DNA from: Vicinamibacterales bacterium
Lineage (GTDB): Bacteria > Acidobacteriota > Vicinamibacteria > Vicinamibacterales > UBA8438
Direction of reading: 5' to 3'
Length of the DNA stretch: 64,000 nucleotides
Assembly (NCBI GenBank): GCA_965200475.1
Contig: CBDAUL010000007.1
Span: 370,516-434,515 of the forward strand
The notes under the pieces were generated by a model. It was given only the letters and a program-made list of their open reading frames with translations, was not told where the DNA came from and made no database searches. Position 1 is the stretch's first letter. Every line of letters starts with the position of its first letter. A program made the translations under genes and the position numbers. Of this stretch, positions 31,957 through 39,139 are shown one piece after another.

Positions 31957-32901
31957 ATGCGTCGCATCTCTCTTGTGCTGCTCGTCTTGTTCTGCCCGCT
32001 CCCGGGCGCGGCCCAGCCGCCGGAAGCGGTCGACATACCGCGCACGCCGTGGGGCCGGCCGGCCCTCACCGGTGTGTGGACCAACTCGAGCCTGACGCCG
32101 CTCGAACGCCCGGACGAGTACGGCGACCGGGAGCTCCACACGGCGGACGAGCTGGTCGAGCTGCAGCGGACCGCCGTCCAGCGGCGCATCGACGCGCTCC
32201 GCGGGCCGGAAGCCATCCTGGCCGTCGAGTTCAGCGAGATCTGGATGGAGCCGGGAGCGCTGAGCGGGCGGACCTCGCTGATCACGGGACCGACCGGGAA
32301 GATTCCGCCCTACACGCCCGAGGCGGAAGAACGGCTGGCCGACGGTCTCCGGCAGCCGATGACCCAGCGGGCCGACTCGCACGACGATCGGGGCTACAGC
32401 GAGCGCTGCCTGCGCTTCGTCACCGGCGGCCCGCCGATGATGGCGTTCCCGTTCGCCCCCCTGGTTCAGATCGTTCAGACCCCGGACCACGTGGTGATCC
32501 AGACCGAGGAGAACCACGAGACCCGGATCGTGCACCTCGACGATCGACCCCACGTGGACCCGCGGATACGGCTCTGGCGCGGCGACTCCCGGGGACGCTG
32601 GGAGGGCGACACCCTGGTGATCGAGACCACGAACTTCAACGGCACGGGCGGGTTCCGGAACTCCGGTCCCGAGCTGCACCTCACCGAACGTCTGACGCGG
32701 GTGGACGCCGACACCATCCTGTACGGCTTCACGGCTGACGATCCGGGGACCTGGACCGAGCCGTGGTCGGCCGAGATGCCGTTACGGGTGTCTCCGGCGC
32801 CGACCTACGAACACGCCTGCCACGAGGGCAACTACACCCTGCCGCTCGTCCTGAGCGGCGCCCGCGCGCAGGAGCGCCGGGCGGAGGAGGGGGCGAGGTA
32901 G
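31957..32901 (+). CDS. ACHEGNY-motif secreted protein (paralog 3)
   Basis: Blocks WGRPALTGVWTNSSLTPLERP, TSLITGPTGKIPP, IVQTPDHVVIQ, RWEGDTLVIETTNF and TYEHACHEGNYTLPLVLSGAR. Closest to paralog 1. Confidence 0.85.
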   Translation: MRRISLVLLVLFCPLPGAAQPPEAVDIPRTPWGRPALTGVWTNSSLTPLERPDEYGDRELHTADELVELQRTAVQRRIDALRGPEAILAVEFSEIWMEPGALSGRTSLITGPTGKIPPYTPEAEERLADGLRQPMTQRADSHDDRGYSERCLRFVTGGPPMMAFPFAPLVQIVQTPDHVVIQTEENHETRIVHLDDRPHVDPRIRLWRGDSRGRWEGDTLVIETTNFNGTGGFRNSGPELHLTERLTRVDADTILYGFTADDPGTWTEPWSAEMPLRVSPAPTYEHACHEGNYTLPLVLSGARAQERRAEEGAR

Positions 32902-33877
32902 TCGCCTGGACCGAGGCGGCGGTATCGACCCGGAATCCTCTGCTGCGCCACCCGGGCTTCGCTGCTCGGGACGCCCGGAAACGGCAACGTAATGTCCGTC
33001 AGCATCCAGGATGTGTCTGTGCTCCACCGCGTCGCGTTGCCCGGCCAGGCAGCCTGCCACGTGCGGCCGCGTGCGAGAACCGCTCGCCGCGAGGGCTTCG
33101 GCAGCGCCTGCCCGAGGGTGGCTTGCGATCTTTTTTCGCCCCGCATGCATTTTTCTGTTGACAGCCCGTTTCGAGGCCGGCGGCCCAGGATGCGGACTGA
33201 CGTGAGACATGCCGCTCGGACGACCCTGGCCGGCCGCTGGGGGGGCTGCCGGCGTCCGGGAAGACAACGCAGCCGCACCGCGGCCCGATCGGTCCGCCTG
33301 AGGCCGTACAAGCCGTTGAAAAACAGGGGGTTATGATGGAGTCATGGTGCGTCGTGACGATGCGGACGGGAAGCCGCCCGTATCACGCTGTTCTTCTCCA
33401 GCGGGTGCAAGTCCCGTCTCGGTAAGCGCCGGAGCGCCGAGTAGCAGACCCCAGGCACGGCCGGAGACGGCCGTGGCCCGAGCGGGGTGTCAAGAGCCTC
33501 TTCGGAGGGAGCAAGTCCGCGGGCCGCAACATGAAGTGAAGCCTGCAGCCTCGACACATCTACAGTCCGAGAGCCGAGCCGCTCATGTCACGGCGAAGGC
33601 CATGTCTCCCGCGCCCCGGTCCGGCGGCGCACGTGCGGGAGGTCTCGGCGGGGTAGGGGGCGCAGCACGCGGACACGGAGGGGGACGGAACACGAGAGGC
33701 CCGTCTGCGCGGCCCGGGTCGGGGCAACGCGGTCCGCATAAGCCGAAGGTGAAAGCGGGCACGGCGCAGCGGGAGTCCGAGGGGGCCATAGTACCGGTGA
33801 GGGCCGTGCAGCAGAACGCGGCCGGAGGGAAGGGCCCCTGCGGTGGGCACGGCGTTGGCGCGAGGACGCGCGAGGGC

Positions 33878-34676
33878 ATGATCGGCGAGACCGGACCCAA
33901 CTCCCCCGAGAGGCGTGCGCCTCTCGACAAAGTGCGCCAATTGCAACGACGCCTGTGGGCCGCGGCCAAGCGGTCCCCGGAACGGCGCTTCCACGCCCTG
34001 ATGGACCGGATTTGGAGGGATGACGTCCTCTGGGAGGCGTGGCGGCGGGTGCAGCGGAATCGTGGCTCTGCCGGGGTCGACAGGGAGACACTGGCGGAGA
34101 TTGAGCAGCGCGGTGTCGACGCGTTCCTCGCGGAACTCGGCGCGGCGCGACGGGCGGGGACGTATCGGCCGCAGCCGGTCCTGCGGCACTACATCCCCAA
34201 GGCCGATGGCCGACGGCGACCGCTCGGGATACCGACGGTCCGCGACCGGGTGGCGCAGATGGCCGCGACGCTGGTGTTGAGCCCCATCTTCGAGGCGGAC
34301 TTCCGGTCCTCGTCGTACGGGTTTCGACCGAAGCGGAGCGCGACGCAGGCGCTGGAGTTCCTTCGCGTCCGCGGGGCGCGTGGGGGCAACCACGTGCTGG
34401 ACGCAGACATCTGCGACTACTTCAGCCGCATCGACCGAACGAAGCTGCTGACGCTGGTTCGCCAGCGCGTTTCGGACCGGCGTGTCCTTCGGCTGCTGCG
34501 GATGTGGCTCGCGGCGGGGGTGATGGAGGAGGGGCAGGTGCATCGCACCCTGGCGGGGACTCCGCAGGGGGGTGTCATCTCGCCGCTGCTGTCGAACATC
34601 TACCTGCACGTGCTCGACCGGGTCTGGGAGGACCGGTGGGCGCACCTCGGTACGCTGGTGCGTTACGCGGACGACT
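33878..34676 (+). CDS. Outer-intron reverse transcriptase/maturase, 5' portion (RT domains 0-5, ending at YADD)
   Basis: [46 protein letters not shown]...[10 protein letters not shown]...[17 protein letters not shown]...[10 protein letters not shown]...[21 protein letters not shown]...LVRYADD. RT similarity ends abruptly after codon D at 34675. Confidence 0.8.
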
Positions 34677-35141
34677 GTGCGCCACGAAGGCGCAGAAAGG
34701 AGGCCGCGATGGCCGCCTAGCTGCAGCCATGCTGCACGAGGGATGAGGGCAGGCCCCTCGGAGCCGCCCGGCAGGGGGAGGCTCCAAACCGCCGTGCGCT
34801 GCCTCGGTCAAGAGCCGAGGTGGTAAGCGTCACGGAAACGGCGCGGCGCGACCGCGTCAGGTAGGGTGCAGGGAGACGAAGTGAATGAACCACCGGCAAC
34901 GTGTCGAAAGCGTAGGGACGGTGTCGAAACCGGGGCGAGTCGTTAACCCGGGACAGGTCCAGCGGGAGCCTGCAGCTTGGCTGGTCGGCACCCGGCATAA
35001 AGGTGGCGTGACCCTGCACCAGGCCCTTGTGTGGAACGTGGGAACCTGTCGCCTCGATGTGAAGGGAGAAATCCAAGGGGCCGACCCCCGAGGATGAGAA
35101 GCCCGATGCGAGGCACAGGGGCGGAGCGACCCGTACGAGCG

Positions 35142-36476
35142 ATGAAGTCGAGGAAACTCGATGGAGCAAAGGGGTCGCGTCATCCAGTGTGTCCTGACGG
35201 TCAACCGCGCGGGCGGGAGGAGCCGTCGAGCCACGCGAAGCCGTTTCGTATTTCCAAGTGGGTGGTTTGGGAGGCCTACACTCGAGTCAAGGCGAACCAC
35301 GGAGCAGCTGGTGTCGACGCCGAATCTGTCGAGATGTTCGAGCAGGACCTGAAGAACAATCTCTACCGGATTTGGAATCGGATGTCGTCGGGCACGTACT
35401 TCCCGCCTCCGGTCCGTTCGGTTGGAATACCGAAGAAGGACGGAAGCGAGCGCCGCTTGGGCGTACCCACTGTCGCCGACAGAATTGCCCAAACGGTGGT
35501 CAAGATGTACCTGGAACCGGAGGTAGAGCCGCAGTTCCACCCCGATTCGTATGGGTACCGCCCGCGGAAGTCAGCGGTCGACGCACTCACGGCAACCCGG
35601 CAGCGATGCTGGCGTTACGACTGGGTGATCGACCTTGACGTCCGCGGCTTCTTCGACAACCTGGACCACTCGCTCGTCATGCGAGCGGTCAGGAAGTACA
35701 CACGGTGCCAGTGGATTCTGCTCTATGTGCAGCGGTGGCTGACCGCTCCCATGCAGCAGGACGACGGAACCCTGGTGCCGCGCACGACGGGGACGCCCCA
35801 AGGGGGCGTCGCGAGCCCACTCCTGGCCAACATCTTCCTGCACCTCGCGTTCGACGACTGGATGCGGACCACGCACCCGGACGTTCCGTTCGAGAGGTAC
35901 GCGGACGATATCGTCGCGCACTGTCGGACGGAGGCGCAGGCGCAGCAGGTCCTGTCGCACATCCAACGTCGTCTGGCGCAATGCCGGCTGGAGGTGCATC
36001 CGGAGAAGACGCGTATCGTCTACTGCAAGGATGACGACCGGCCGGGGCAGTATCCCACGGAGCAGTTCACCTTCTTGGGCTACACGTTTCGTTCACGTCG
36101 GGCGAAGAATCGATGGGGTCGGTACTTCATCAGCTTCATCCCGGCGGTGAGCAATGCGGCGGCGACGCGGATGCGGCAGACGATGCGGCGTTGGCACCTC
36201 CCTCGGCGCAGCGACAAGGCCATCGACGACTTGGCCCGCATGTGGAATCCGGTCCTTCGCGGCTGGATTCAGTACTACGGCCGCTTCTACAAGTCGGCCC
36301 TGTATTCGGTCTTTCGCCACCTCAACGGTCTGTTGGTTCGATGGGCCATGCGGAAATACAAGAGGCTCCGGCGCCATCGCCGCCGCGCCACACATTGGCT
36401 CGGGGGTCTTGCGCGTCGCGAGCCCCGGCTGTTCGCCCACTGGCATCTGCTGGGGCTGACGCCGGCGGCTGGATGA
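35142..36476 (+). CDS. Inner-intron reverse transcriptase/maturase (RT + X domain, no endonuclease domain)
   Basis: ...WEAYTRVKANHGAAGVDAESV...ERRLGVPTVADRIAQTVV...YGYRPRKSAVDA...GTPQGGVASPLLANIFLH...ERYADDIVAHC...EVHPEKTRIVYC...FTFLGYTF...LRGWIQYYGRFYKS. The start could also lie upstream, since the track ORF begins at 35031. Confidence 0.88.
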   Translation: MKSRKLDGAKGSRHPVCPDGQPRGREEPSSHAKPFRISKWVVWEAYTRVKANHGAAGVDAESVEMFEQDLKNNLYRIWNRMSSGTYFPPPVRSVGIPKKDGSERRLGVPTVADRIAQTVVKMYLEPEVEPQFHPDSYGYRPRKSAVDALTATRQRCWRYDWVIDLDVRGFFDNLDHSLVMRAVRKYTRCQWILLYVQRWLTAPMQQDDGTLVPRTTGTPQGGVASPLLANIFLHLAFDDWMRTTHPDVPFERYADDIVAHCRTEAQAQQVLSHIQRRLAQCRLEVHPEKTRIVYCKDDDRPGQYPTEQFTFLGYTFRSRRAKNRWGRYFISFIPAVSNAAATRMRQTMRRWHLPRRSDKAIDDLARMWNPVLRGWIQYYGRFYKSALYSVFRHLNGLLVRWAMRKYKRLRRHRRRATHWLGGLARREPRLFAHWHLLGLTPAAG

Positions 36477-36479
36477 TGG

Positions 36480-36513
36480 GAGCTGTATGAGCGGAGACGT
36501 TCACGTACAGTTC
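36480..36513 (+). ncRNA. Group II intron domain V (inner intron)
   Basis: GAGCTGTATGAGCGGAGACGTTCACGTACAGTTC. This is a 34-nt hairpin with the AGC catalytic triad, a 2-nt CG bulge on the 3' strand and a GAGA (GNRA) tetraloop. Confidence 0.85.
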
Positions 36514-36553
36514 TGCGAGCGCCCGGGGGTGCGATTCCCCCGGGCGACTCACC

Positions 36554-37101
36554 TCGTGGTGATGTGCAACACGAAGGCGGCGCGAGAGCGGGTGGGCCTG
36601 GTGCTCGCCCGGCTCGGGCTGGAGCTGCATCCGGAGAAGACGCGGGTGGTCGACCTGACGGACGGTCGTGAGGGCTTCGACTTCCTGGGGTGTCATCTGC
36701 ACAAGCGCCTGAGCGGACCCATCTGGGCCCGCCAGCGGCAACGGGTGTATTTCCTGCACCGTTGGCCGTCTCGGCATGCGATGCAGCAGGTGCGCGCCCG
36801 CGTGCGGGCGCTCACCCCGAGGGGCCGTTGCCACACGGACCTGCGTCTGGTCATCGCGGATGTGAACCGGGTGCTTCGCGGGTGGGGGCAGTATTTCCGG
36901 ACGGGGAATGCGGCGACCCACTTCGTGCAGCTCGACCAGTACGTGGAACGGCGCCTGCGCGGCTTGCTCCTCAAGCGCGCGGGGTCGCGTCTGGCGGCTG
37001 GTCGGGCGCAAGCCTGGAAACGTTCGTTCTTCGAGGCCTTGGGGCTCGTCCGCCTGCGCGGCACGATTCGGTATCCGGGGGTGGTGCATGCTGCGACCTG
37101 A
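36554..37101 (+). CDS. Outer-intron reverse transcriptase/maturase, 3' portion (RT domains 6-7 + X)
   Basis: (F)VVMCNTKAARERVGLVLARLGLELHPEKTRVVDLTDGREGFDFLGCHL...VNRVLRGWGQYFRTGNAA... continues exactly where the 5' portion stops. The track ORF 36487..37101 begins inside inner-intron domain V, so its first 22 codons are not IEP sequence. Confidence 0.8.
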
Positions 37102-37113
37102 AGTCCACCTGGA

Positions 37114-37147
37114 AAGCCGTGTGCGGGAAATCCGCATGCACGGTTTG
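37114..37147 (+). ncRNA. Group II intron domain V (outer intron)
   Basis: AAGCCGTGTGCGGGAAATCCGCATGCACGGTTTG. A 34-nt hairpin with the AGC triad, a 2-nt bulge and a GAAA-type loop, 13 nt after the IEP stop. Confidence 0.8.
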
Positions 37148-37207
37148 AACGGGGGTCTTGCTCTCAGCCGGTCGGTTGTCTCGACCGACGCCAAGTAGGA
37201 TCTACCA

Positions 37208-39139
37208 ATGCCTGTCGAGCCCCGCAGCTTGCCCGTCGCGTCCGTCCCGCCTGCCCCGCCTGCCCCGTCGGCCGCTCCGCCTGCCGAGGCCGACGTCCCA
37301 GTCGTGCCGCCTGCGCGAGCCGACGAGGCCGCGCCCGGCGTCGAGGCGCTCGGCAACCGGATAGCCGACCTCGCCGCCCGCATCCAGGCCGCCACCTACG
37401 AGCTGCTCGTCCTCATCCGGCACTTCGACGAGCGCGGCGGCTGGGAGAGCTTCGCCTCCTGCGCGCACTGGCTGAGCTGGCGCATCGGCCTCGCGCCGGG
37501 CGCCGCCCGCGAGAAGGTGCGCGTCGCCCACGCCCTGGCGAAGCTGCCGCGGCTGAGCGAGGCGCTGCGGCGCGGCGCCGTCTCCTACTCGAAGGTACGC
37601 GCCGTCACCCGCGTGGCAACTCCCGCGACCGAGCAGGCGCTCCTCGACGTTGCCCTCGCCGGCACCGCCGCGCACGTCGAGCAGGTGGTCCGCACCTGGC
37701 GCCGGGTCGACCGCTCGGCCGAGCAGGCGGAGGACCGGCGGCGGCACGAGTCGCGCGCCCTCCACACCTGGGTGGACGACGACGGGATGGTCGTGGTCCG
37801 CGGCAGGCTGACGCCGGAGGTGGGCGCCGTGCTGCGGCGGGCGCTGGAGGCGGCGCTCGATGCCGGGGCGAAGACGGCGGGGCCGGCGGCGGGAGCAGAT
37901 GCGGCAGCAGGTGGGGAGCCGCGCGCGGTGGGCCCCGACGCGACGGCGCGGGACGCGGCGGCGCCGGACGCCGTAGTGCTGGACGCAACGGCGCCGGACG
38001 CAACCGCGCCGGAGGCCCCGGCCTCGGACGCAGCGGTGCCGGACGCCGCGGAGACCGCTGGCGCGATGGCCCCCACCATCGCGCAGCGGCGGGCTGATGC
38101 GCTGGCGATGCTGGCCGAGTGCGCGCTGGCCGGCGGGCTCGACAAGGGGACGGCCGGCGACCGCTACCAGGTGGTCGTGCACGTCGACGCCGACACCCTG
38201 GCGGACGGCGGTGAGCAGGGCGAGGACCCTGCGGCCGCCGCCCGGCCTGGCGACTCCGCCGTCGTCGATGGCGTCGCTGTCGATAGTGCCGACGTCGATA
38301 GCGCCGCCGTCGATGGCGCGGCGGCCAGCCGGCCCGGCGAGTCGCCCGTCGTCGGGGCCGCCGCCGCAGGCCCCGGCCCCGAGAGGCCGGCGCCGTACGT
38401 TCCAGCGGGAACGTACCCGCGGCGCGCGGGGGAGGTCTCCCCCGCCGCGGACGAGACGTCCCCCGCGTTGCCGGACGGCCCCTCCCGGCCCCTCCCCGAC
38501 GTTGACGGACCGCCCCGGCGGCGCCGCACCGCCGGCCCCGGCCCCGCCGGCGGCCAGTCGGCCCTCGACGAGGCGGGCGGCATCCACGTCTCCGCGGAGA
38601 CGGCCCGGCGGCTGGCCTGCGACGCCGCGACCGTGACCATGCGGCACGGGCCGACCGGCGAGGTCCTGGACGTCGGCCGCCGCACGCGCACCATCTCGCC
38701 CGCCCTGCGCCGGGCGCTGGCCGCCCGCGACCGGCACTGCCGCTTCCCCGGGTGCGCGGCAACCCGCTGCGATGCGCACCACATCGAGCACTGGGCGCAG
38801 GGCGGGGCGACCGCGCTCGGCAACCTCGTGCTGCTCTGCCGGCGGCATCACCGGGCCGTGCACGAGGAAGGGTTCCGGGTGGCGCTCGACGCGGCGGGCG
38901 AGGCGCGCTTCCTACGGCCGGACGGCCGGCCGCTGCCCGAGGCGCCGGCGTTGCCGGCCGTGACCGACGCCCCGCTGGCGCCGGTGACGGCGCGGCTCGA
39001 CCGGGCGGGCATCCGCATCGGCCCGCACACGGCCGCGCCGGCCTGGCGCGGCGAGCGGCTCGACGTCGACTGGGCCGTCAGCGTGCTGTGGCGGCCGCGC
39101 GGGGACGGCGCGGGCGACGTGCTCCCCGAGGCGCCGTAG
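37208..39139 (+). CDS. DUF222 + HNH endonuclease protein (actinobacterial REP13E12-type architecture)
   Basis: DUF222-like N-terminal half (IADLAARIQAATYELLVLIRHFDERGGW...CAHWLSWRIGLAPGAAREKVRVAHAL..LPRLSEALRRGAVSYSKVRAVTRVAT). HNH motif near the C-terminus (RDRHCRFPGCAATRCDAHHIEHWAQGGATALGNLVLLCRRHHRAVHE). The true start may lie in the upstream exon at 33333/33336 (see findings). Confidence 0.85.
   Translation: MPVEPRSLPVASVPPAPPAPSAAPPAEADVPVVPPARADEAAPGVEALGNRIADLAARIQAATYELLVLIRHFDERGGWESFASCAHWLSWRIGLAPGAAREKVRVAHALAKLPRLSEALRRGAVSYSKVRAVTRVATPATEQALLDVALAGTAAHVEQVVRTWRRVDRSAEQAEDRRRHESRALHTWVDDDGMVVVRGRLTPEVGAVLRRALEAALDAGAKTAGPAAGADAAAGGEPRAVGPDATARDAAAPDAVVLDATAPDATAPEAPASDAAVPDAAETAGAMAPTIAQRRADALAMLAECALAGGLDKGTAGDRYQVVVHVDADTLADGGEQGEDPAAAARPGDSAVVDGVAVDSADVDSAAVDGAAASRPGESPVVGAAAAGPGPERPAPYVPAGTYPRRAGEVSPAADETSPALPDGPSRPLPDVDGPPRRRRTAGPGPAGGQSALDEAGGIHVSAETARRLACDAATVTMRHGPTGEVLDVGRRTRTISPALRRALAARDRHCRFPGCAATRCDAHHIEHWAQGGATALGNLVLLCRRHHRAVHEEGFRVALDAAGEARFLRPDGRPLPEAPALPAVTDAPLAPVTARLDRAGIRIGPHTAAPAWRGERLDVDWAVSVLWRPRGDGAGDVLPEAP
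37937..38056 (+). repeat. Eight tandem 15-nt units (GACGCnnCGGCGCCG) encoding D-A-x-A-P pentapeptides
   Basis: Read directly: DATAR DAAAP DAVVL DATAP DATAP EAPAS DAAVP DAAET. Located in the linker between the DUF222 and HNH parts. Confidence 0.8.
38255..38314 (+). repeat. Four tandem 15-nt units (nGnGCCGnCGTCGAT) encoding x-A-x-V-D pentapeptides
   Basis: TCCGCCGTCGTCGAT GGCGTCGCTGTCGAT AGTGCCGACGTCGAT AGCGCCGCCGTCGAT, read directly. Confidence 0.8.

Follow-up and report, generated by a model that had tools for sequence, protein, structure and literature searches.

A group II intron nested at the reverse transcriptase active-site codons of a second group II intron in a Vicinamibacterales bacterium

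Analysis of a 64,000-nucleotide (nt) stretch of a Vicinamibacterales genome (GenBank assembly GCA_965200475.1, contig CBDAUL010000007.1, positions 370,516 to 434,515; hereafter the window) revealed two group II introns, one lying inside the reverse transcriptase (RT) gene of the other. The pair is very probably a bacterial group II twintron made by retrohoming, in which the target of the inner intron is the sequence coding for the RT active site, the Tyr-Ala-Asp-Asp (YADD) motif. It would represent a base-exact natural case of a retroelement that parasitizes retroelements through their most conserved codons. A preliminary description of the window, made from its letters and open reading frames (ORFs), had already read the locus as nested introns with a twintron-like dependency, and that overall interpretation is supported by the comparisons reported here.

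Anatomy of the nested pair

A scan at Rfam gathering thresholds detected exactly two group II introns in the 64 kb, both on the + strand. Their parts, and those of the gene that they interrupt, are listed below (IEP, intron-encoded protein; EBS and IBS, exon- and intron-binding sequences; aa, amino acids).

33332 to 33337, +: -10-like hexamer TATGAT; 6 nt separate it from the start codon at the end of the outer 5′ exon
33344 to 33346, +: ATG, the last three bases of the outer 5′ exon; presumed start codon of the DUF222/HNH gene, opening the frame that runs through the outer intron
33347 to 37210, +: outer group II intron, from 5′ GUGCG to ..CUACCAAUG; 37210 is the probable 3′ end and 37209 the alternative
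33399 to 33534, +: outer domain I core, RF02003 (group-II-D1D4-4), Rfam 86.3 bits, E = 1.5e-17
33584 to 33587, +: outer candidate EBS1 CAUG, in the hairpin loop GCCG-CUCAUGUCA-CGGC (family alignment)
33878 to 34676, +: N-terminal part of the outer IEP (RT motifs to YADD plus 1 nt), in a frame open from 33344
34664 to 34676, +: inner homing site, formed by the Tyr-Ala-Asp-Asp codons and the next nt
34664 to 34668 and 34671 to 34676, +: IBS2 (TACGC) and IBS1 (ACGACT) within the inner homing site
34677 to 36553, +: inner group II intron, 1877 nt (empty site, identical copies, Rfam, consensus fold)
34745 to 34862, +: inner domain I core, RF01999, Rfam 104.8 bits
34910 to 34914, +: inner EBS2 GCGUA, internal loop of the domain I d arm, conserved across the family
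34938 to 34944, +: inner EBS1 AGUCGU (+ U), terminal hairpin loop
35106 to 36476, +: inner RT/maturase, 456 aa plus stop, RVT_1 and GIIM (444 aa if read from ATG 35142)
36478 to 36553, +: inner domains V and VI, RF00029 54.7 bits; domain V 36480 to 36513, bulged A 36547
36554 to 37101, +: C-terminal part of the outer IEP (end of RT, X/maturase domain), stop codon 37099 to 37101
37112 to 37210, +: outer domains V and VI; domain V 37114 to 37146, bulged A 37204, terminal ..CCAAUG
37211 to 39139, +: 3′ exon, DUF222 + HNH endonuclease-family gene from codon 2 to stop (Pfam DUF222, HNH)

Both elements begin with a group II 5′ motif (GTGCG at 33347 and GTGCGCC at 34677), and the features first described for their domains V and VI are reproduced by folding. 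In the inner intron, domain V has its AGC triad at 36481-36483, a 2-nt bulge and a GAGA loop, domain VI carries the bulged A at 36547, and the two domains together fold with z = -6.5; in the outer intron the AGC triad lies at 37115-37117 and the bulged A at 37204, and RF00029 matches 37112-37191 with 43.6 bits. The inner element also folds beyond its 3′ domains: a consensus structure of domains I-III, derived from an alignment of 14 family members with 64-82% nt identity to the window copy, contains 122 predicted pairs, of which 61 show compensatory changes.

Joining 34676 to 36554 gives gac gac t/tc gtg gtg (a slash marks a junction throughout), which reads YADDFVVMC in frame, as had been proposed. 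The joined outer protein has 448 aa (..LVRYADD/FVVMC..), contains only the RVT_1 and GIIM domains, and matches TIGR04416 (353 positions, cut-off 300 bits) in a single stretch from position 2 to 352 with 388.6 bits. A protein search returned thousands of uninterrupted homologues, the best of them 88-90% identical, and no indel falls at the junction when the joined protein is aligned to the close ones. When the inner intron is left in place, the outer RT frame meets a stop codon at 34718-34720. The inner IEP itself is encoded by an intact ORF with RVT_1 and GIIM domains and scores 422.7 bits against TIGR04416. Its start, previously set at 35142, is more likely ATG 35106, 12 codons upstream, where homologous IEPs (P0121 and most of the 456-aa homologues) begin with MRGTGAERPVRAMKSRK... 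A Pfam domain search found no endonuclease domain in either IEP, and the inner protein ends 26 aa past GIIM.

A search for copies of the outer intron that lack the insert found one in L002, an ENA metagenome contig that carries the intron uninterrupted. Window positions 33347-34676 correspond to L002 3548-4877 (92% nt identity) and 36554-37209 to L002 4878-5545 (88%), and because the two sequences are collinear on both sides, the flanks of the inner intron are adjacent in this empty site: the bases that match 34676 and 36554 adjoin exactly (4877/4878). Some 80 homologous outer introns likewise do without the segment 34677-36553, which argues against its being a native part of the outer element. 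The empty site and the Rfam matches bear out the nesting of one complete group II intron in the RT gene of another, and together with the sequence and the identical inner copies described below they fix the outer 5′ end and both inner ends where they had been placed. The inner intron is predicted to occupy the ORF loop of outer domain IV, outside the ribozyme core, so placed that its removal would restore the outer intron exactly.

Both introns are multicopy in related metagenomes, where many homologues lie on contigs of about 2 kb that break at repeats, and collapsed copies of this kind could in principle have been assembled into a chimera. The junctions, however, are base-exact at a known homing site and restore the reading frame, and the same architecture recurs in megabase-scale contigs of metagenome-assembled genomes (MAGs) and in the records of complete chromosomes and complete plasmids. 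With exact junctions and a layout that recurs in complete replicons, misassembly is extremely improbable.

Target recognition and mobility of the inner intron

Two conserved unpaired segments in the consensus fold are complementary to the 5′ exon. GCGUA faces positions -13 to -9 (UAYGC) as EBS2 and AGUCGU(U) faces -7 to -1 ((G)AYGAYU) as EBS1; they lie in the internal and the terminal loop, respectively, of the d arm of a domain I for which RF01999 is the best Rfam model. The EBS residues that face the third positions of the Tyr codon and of both Asp codons are G, so that C or U can be accommodated by wobble pairing, and position -8, the Ala wobble base at which any nucleotide is synonymous, lies unpaired between IBS2 and IBS1. 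The guide sequences of this intron are thereby seen to tolerate synonymous variation, and almost any ..YADD(F/C/W..).. gene would therefore be a target. Pairing of EBS1 AGTCGT (34938-34943) with the exon end ACGACT, put forward in the preliminary description, gains support from EBS/IBS covariation within the family. In L049, for example, EBS1 is UGUCGU opposite ACGACA, a change that covaries at -1.

The target was surveyed by scanning one genome per species with the inner IEP, which gave 79 loci; boundary mapping yielded 61 distinct 5′ junction sequences, three of them head-to-tail tandem. Among the remaining 58, the codons for YADD (38) or FADD (4) followed by one base precede the intron, and seven junctions are near variants (YAGD, YCDD, YGDD, YDDD, DADD and SAGD). 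The interrupted proteins are diverse, with junction contexts such as YADDF followed by VVMC, AVLG, VILC or VVGC, YADDC/S/A followed by NIYVRS, FADDL followed by VILIDG and YADDW followed by VITC, among others. Where the joined host segment is at least 120 aa long, 38 of 46 are RT/maturase homologues that are 27-56% identical to the window IEPs, and most of these alignments cross the junction. The closest relatives of the inner IEP (92-96% aa identity) all come from Vicinamibacterales MAGs, and relatives in Bacillota with the same target show 64-70% nt identity.

Insertion at YADD is a known homing specificity of this lineage, a point that the preliminary description had missed. Intron-in-intron homing of this kind has been known since 2003 (Dai & Zimmerly 2003, as summarised by Tourasse & Kolsto 2008, PMC2504315). 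In the summary of that work, M.a.I5 (Methanosarcina acetivorans), UA.I3, P.l.I2 (Photorhabdus luminescens) and B.th.I3 (Bacillus thuringiensis) share the target RYADD + 1 nt (AGGTATGCTGATGACT/) and are grouped by 58-67% nt identity over their whole length. The same source describes the IBS1 and IBS2 of B.th.I3 as the RT active site, and the lineage as about 1.8 kb long, B-like and free of an endonuclease domain. The window exon ..CGTTACGCGGACGACT/ fits this target, and the inner intron matches the lineage in target, length and endonuclease absence, the named members being compared by their description; B.th.I3 was not among the top matches of a tblastn search against plasmids. Further shared traits are the use of active-site codons as IBS1/IBS2, a size of about 1.8-1.9 kb, recognition of the 5′ exon only, and the formation of twintrons in the RT ORFs of other introns. 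Because the YADD specificity has already been published, the window twintron is a further case of a known type. It differs from the described members in that its nearest relatives are found in MAGs of Vicinamibacterales (Acidobacteriota), and its family in a high copy number, tandem arrays and ORF-less derivatives of 663-698 nt. The survey extends the known lineage to Acidobacteriota, to rhizobial and clostridial plasmids and to many other phyla.

A search for inner copies elsewhere found them in L166-L168, identical over 1877/1877 nt and with the same ends. Their host is a different intron, about 65% identical over one alignable piece, with exons ..VNYADD/LAVLG... Because identical copies occupy a different host, the inner element is, on this comparison, a discrete unit with true ends at 34677 and 36553 that has moved recently. 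Recent activity of the family is likewise visible in tandem arrays, in derivatives without an ORF and in a relative whose target has become an IS3-type (insertion sequence) transposase gene. Head-to-tail arrays (..GACTCACC/GTGCGCC..) occur in L009, L013, L014, L017, L018, L024 (a Vicinamibacterales MAG), L081 and L082 (Sinorhizobium meliloti pMl3), and are expected from recognition of the 5′ exon only, which leaves that exon intact upstream of a resident copy. The ORF-less derivatives recur with intron nt 1-569 joined to roughly the last 95-129 nt.

Two distant relatives (65-74% nt identity), L041 (287) and L046 (~380-440), lie in a motif of IS3-type transposases (..WMDN/VFIERLWR). In L041 the exon reads ..UGGAUGGACAACG/, and both guides have changed with it: EBS2 is AUCCA opposite UGGAU at -13 to -9, and EBS1 is CGUUGU opposite ACAACG, each a perfect complement. 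Judged by these guides, L041 has switched naturally from a target in one mobile-element gene to a target in another.

Copies outside recognizable RT genes were observed at L008 4533, L015 4460, L012/L017 (CGCTGGCGACC/) and L037 4462. Some of these sites encode YADD or FADD by chance (DWYADD/YWLV, QFADD/ENE) and others match IBS1 in part; they look like ectopic retrotransposition events. In L001 1-5448 (ENA ERZ26167216 contig), an inner-type intron at YADD/CNIYVRS is broken in domain I by about 3.8 kb containing an IS66-family transposase gene and, on the opposite strand, a third group II intron (RF02005), with the 8-bp flanking repeat CCCGGGAC. A possible self-protection of the inner intron's own YADD site (TACGCGGACGAT/A) by codon choice was considered and rejected: once G.U pairs are allowed, the site mismatches at -1 only, L055 is an inner-family intron inside an IEP of the same family, and A or C occupies -1 at several natural sites.

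Annotation pipelines split loci of this type into an 'RT domain protein' and a 'maturase-domain protein'. On S. meliloti pMl3 (exon LIRYADD/) the annotated order is 'reverse transcriptase domain protein / ltrA / ltrA / maturase-domain protein', and Clostridium pasteurianum pCLOPA01 (exon TRYADD/) has the same split layout with one ltrA gene.

Start-codon site and reading frame of the outer intron

A metagenome scan with the joined outer IEP gave 80 loci and 40 distinct 5′ junctions, of which 36 end in ATG and three in GTG. A TANNNT hexamer precedes this codon by 5-8 nt at 37/40 sites (22 at 6 nt, 12 at 7 nt), compared with 5.6% of control ATGG sites in the same loci (binomial p ~5e-43, with copies that are not independent). 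The window junction reads TATGAT-GGAGTC-ATG/GTGCG. A scan of 32800-37600 for sigma-70 promoters that require a -35 box found none, and the outer-family 5′ exons revealed no hairpin with a T run of the terminator or attC type; a -10-like box and a start codon are found there instead.

The downstream gene is in phase with the terminal AUG of the intron in 19/20 loci that have a clear signal in third-position G+C content (GC3). The window is among them, its 3′ exon having a GC3 of 0.91 in the frame of ATG 37208-37210. On an Embleya plasmid an outer-family site reads TACGGT-GCGTCC-ATG/..CCAATG/ACC GAA (MTETWTPA..), and the uninterrupted Streptomyces orthologue, annotated as a coding sequence of the tyrosine-phosphatase family, reads TACGCT-CGCACC-GTG ACT ACC (VTTAWEPA..). 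Since the two sites match, insertion takes place between the start codon and codon 2, which in turn makes 37210 the most likely outer 3′ end. The interval 33347-37209 given earlier thus stands at its 5′ end and is superseded at its 3′ end by the downstream coding phase and the orthologue comparison. A three-base ATG repeat makes the exact cut ambiguous in the sequence itself; a 3′ splice at 37209, which would follow the AY rule and leave ATG/GCC, is disfavored by the 19/20 downstream phases and by the uninterrupted orthologue. In this window alone, an in-frame start at 33334 (MMESW..) is a possible alternative; it does not generalize. The outer 3′ end TAGGAT-CTACCA-ATG was also considered as a conserved outward promoter and set aside as weak, TANNNT being present at the right spacing in 25/48 distinct 3′ ends. 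The product of the gene split at its start codon (37208-39139) is a 643-aa DUF222 + HNH endonuclease-family protein whose N-terminus is rich in Pro and Ala.

The only conserved exon-complementary element found in the outer family is the CAUG hairpin loop (33584-33587), which pairs with the CAUG at the end of the 5′ exon and whose fourth base covaries with exon position -4 in L002, L102, L123 and L149. No EBS2 partner was found in the family alignment. The outer intron shares with group IIC introns a short EBS1-IBS1 pairing (3-4 bp), the absence of an evident EBS2-IBS2 pairing and a target defined by transcription signals. Group IIC introns insert after terminator hairpins or attC sites, whereas the sites of the outer family follow promoter-proximal start codons and its domain I (RF02003) is different.

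The exon start codon and the outer IEP share a frame in 25/34 members, 24 of which keep it open for 594-660 codons; in the window it is open for 626 codons from 33344 once 34677-36553 is removed. The ribozyme part of 19 such members contains 0 stop codons in the IEP frame, while the other two frames hold 107 and 86; in the inner intron, which served as a control, each of the three frames is interrupted by stops. GC3 in the outer ribozyme part is about 0.66 with no periodicity, compared with 0.83 in the IEP, and because periodicity is lacking the open frame would reflect avoidance of stop codons and not a protein domain. These data suggest that the IEP may be translated from the start codon of the host gene. 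The IEP frame of the yeast mitochondrial introns aI1 and aI2 is, as in the outer intron, continuous with the upstream exon through domains I-III. These are organellar introns with a long coding upstream exon, whereas the upstream exon of the outer intron provides a start codon only.

In actinobacteria the DUF222/HNH family occurs as repeated genes that are possibly selfish, and the locus may therefore be a nest of selfish elements three layers deep. We propose, tentatively and at somewhat less than even confidence, that the outer intron belongs to a specialized lineage, so far undescribed, of endonuclease-less introns that enter leaderless-type genes (those with a -10 box 5-8 nt upstream) directly after the start codon, ahead of codon 2. 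Such introns would use an EBS1-IBS1 pairing of about 4 bp together with a non-sequence cue and would keep their IEP frame open from the host AUG. The cue could be, for example, an open promoter complex or the 5′ end of a leaderless mRNA, a suggestion that is as tentative as the proposal itself. If the proposal is true, outer splicing would regenerate the exact leaderless mRNA, and the window would combine an HNH-family gene, a start-codon intron and a YADD intron as successive layers.

The closest precedent is the IIB1/CL1 clade that inserts at start and stop codons (Michel et al. 2007, as described in PMC12584367), which likewise includes insertion at an initiation codon and tandem integrations. 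As characterized in that description, the clade has a C-terminal endonuclease domain, a 300-700-nt insertion in subdomain Ia and proteobacterial housekeeping genes as hosts. The outer intron has neither of the first two (448-aa IEP with RVT_1 and GIIM only; domains I-III of 531 nt with a variable 5′ hairpin of at most ~50 nt), and its family lies beside -10-like boxes in high-G+C soil bacteria. No published account of the outer family's start-codon site, -10 box and exon-fused frame was found beyond the IIB1 groEL clade, although Michel et al. 2007 (Biochimie) could hold one; the start-codon habit is thus apparently undescribed. If confirmed and undescribed, the outer family would add a new target strategy to those of sequence homing, terminators and attC sites (2015 review). 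It would also, if confirmed, provide a bacterial IEP frame fused to the exon, with bearing on the coexistence of introns with the signals that start transcription and translation. The association with start codons and -10 boxes and the exon-fused frame are the features that most merit follow-up.

Proposed splicing order and dependence of the outer intron

We infer the following course of events for the twintron. The inner intron would have reverse-spliced into the RT gene of the outer intron and split it after YADD plus 1 nt. Transcription would start at or near A33344 from the -10-like box, giving a precursor with a 3-nt 5′ exon, and ribosomes initiating at that AUG would read through domains I-III into the outer IEP. 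While the inner intron remains unspliced, the outer product would be truncated 14 codons after YADD. The inner IEP, probably started at ATG 35106, would excise the inner intron and restore the outer ORF, and the outer IEP would then aid outer splicing, which joins AUG to CCU GUC.. and yields the DUF222/HNH message. Outer mobility after inner splicing would present a fresh YADD target, and mobility before it would move the twintron as a unit. Because the unspliced frame ends 14 codons into the inner intron, a cis-encoded outer maturase would require prior inner splicing, and we infer on sound grounds that the outer maturase depends on it.

Four points weigh against this account. Position -1 is often mismatched with EBS1 in inner-family members, so the pairing rule is not strict there. 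The splicing of either intron, and its order, are read from sequence. Maturase might be supplied in trans, either by the inner IEP or from further outer-family copies. Finally, the outer IEP has a 12-nt in-frame deletion (4 aa) near 36576-36582, between GGCGGCG direct repeats and nine codons past the inner insertion site (NTK----AARERV in the window, DTKAAVEAARERV in all close homologues), and this outer copy may be impaired even if the inner intron splices.

The deletion, which none of the close homologues shares, is one reason to consider that the outer intron is a dead end, inactivated by insertion and deletion and no longer spliced or moved, so that only the inner intron is alive and the nesting is parasitism without dependency. 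A related twintron (L003) does have a partly deleted outer intron, and many inner-family copies sit in broken hosts (L001, L005, L009). Against this, the deletion preserves the frame, the outer ORF, 626 codons long, is otherwise intact and keeps all family-invariant residues, and the domain V, domain VI and domain I motifs are intact as well; we regard inactivation as unlikely.

The possible supply of maturase in trans leads to a further alternative, that the outer intron is spliced by another family copy or by the inner IEP before, or regardless of, inner splicing. The inner intron's position within the ORF loop of domain IV, outside the core of the outer ribozyme, would permit this, and in Thermosynechococcus elongatus one IEP splices and mobilizes both introns of a twintron (PMC2882425). 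The two window IEPs are distant, however (hosts of the inner family show 27-56% identity to them), and no second outer-family copy is found within the 64-kb window. Group II maturases are, moreover, usually specific to their own intron. Splicing in trans is on balance doubtful, if worth keeping in view, and a cis-encoded outer maturase that depends on inner splicing is the reading that we retain.

The T. elongatus twintrons (TeI3 inside TeI4; Mohr et al. 2010, PMC2882425) resemble the window twintron in that the inner intron inserts at a conserved site of another intron's IEP ORF, in that identical inner copies lie in diverged outer copies, indicating recent independent insertions, and in the link between expression of the outer IEP and inner splicing. 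There, the inner intron is ORF-less and lies between the first and second ATG, the latter of which permits IEP synthesis without inner splicing. The window twintron would have no such bypass, because its inner intron comes with an IEP gene and splits the RT active site. The twintrons of Euglena chloroplasts and Trichodesmium (PMC4424553, PMC4649490) are also introns within introns, in which the outer member works only after the inner one has been removed; those inner introns usually disrupt the outer ribozyme fold or lie in essential host genes, whereas the inner intron of the window interrupts only the protein-coding loop. Nests in Methanosarcina have been reviewed as a perpetual homing site (PMC4424553), and the Thermosynechococcus twintrons have been viewed as a proliferation strategy (PMC2882425).

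The neighboring genes of the window (ankyrin repeat, PIG-L, carboxylesterase, molybdopterin oxidoreductase, LON-domain and epoxide hydrolase) place the nested pair in an ordinary chromosomal setting.

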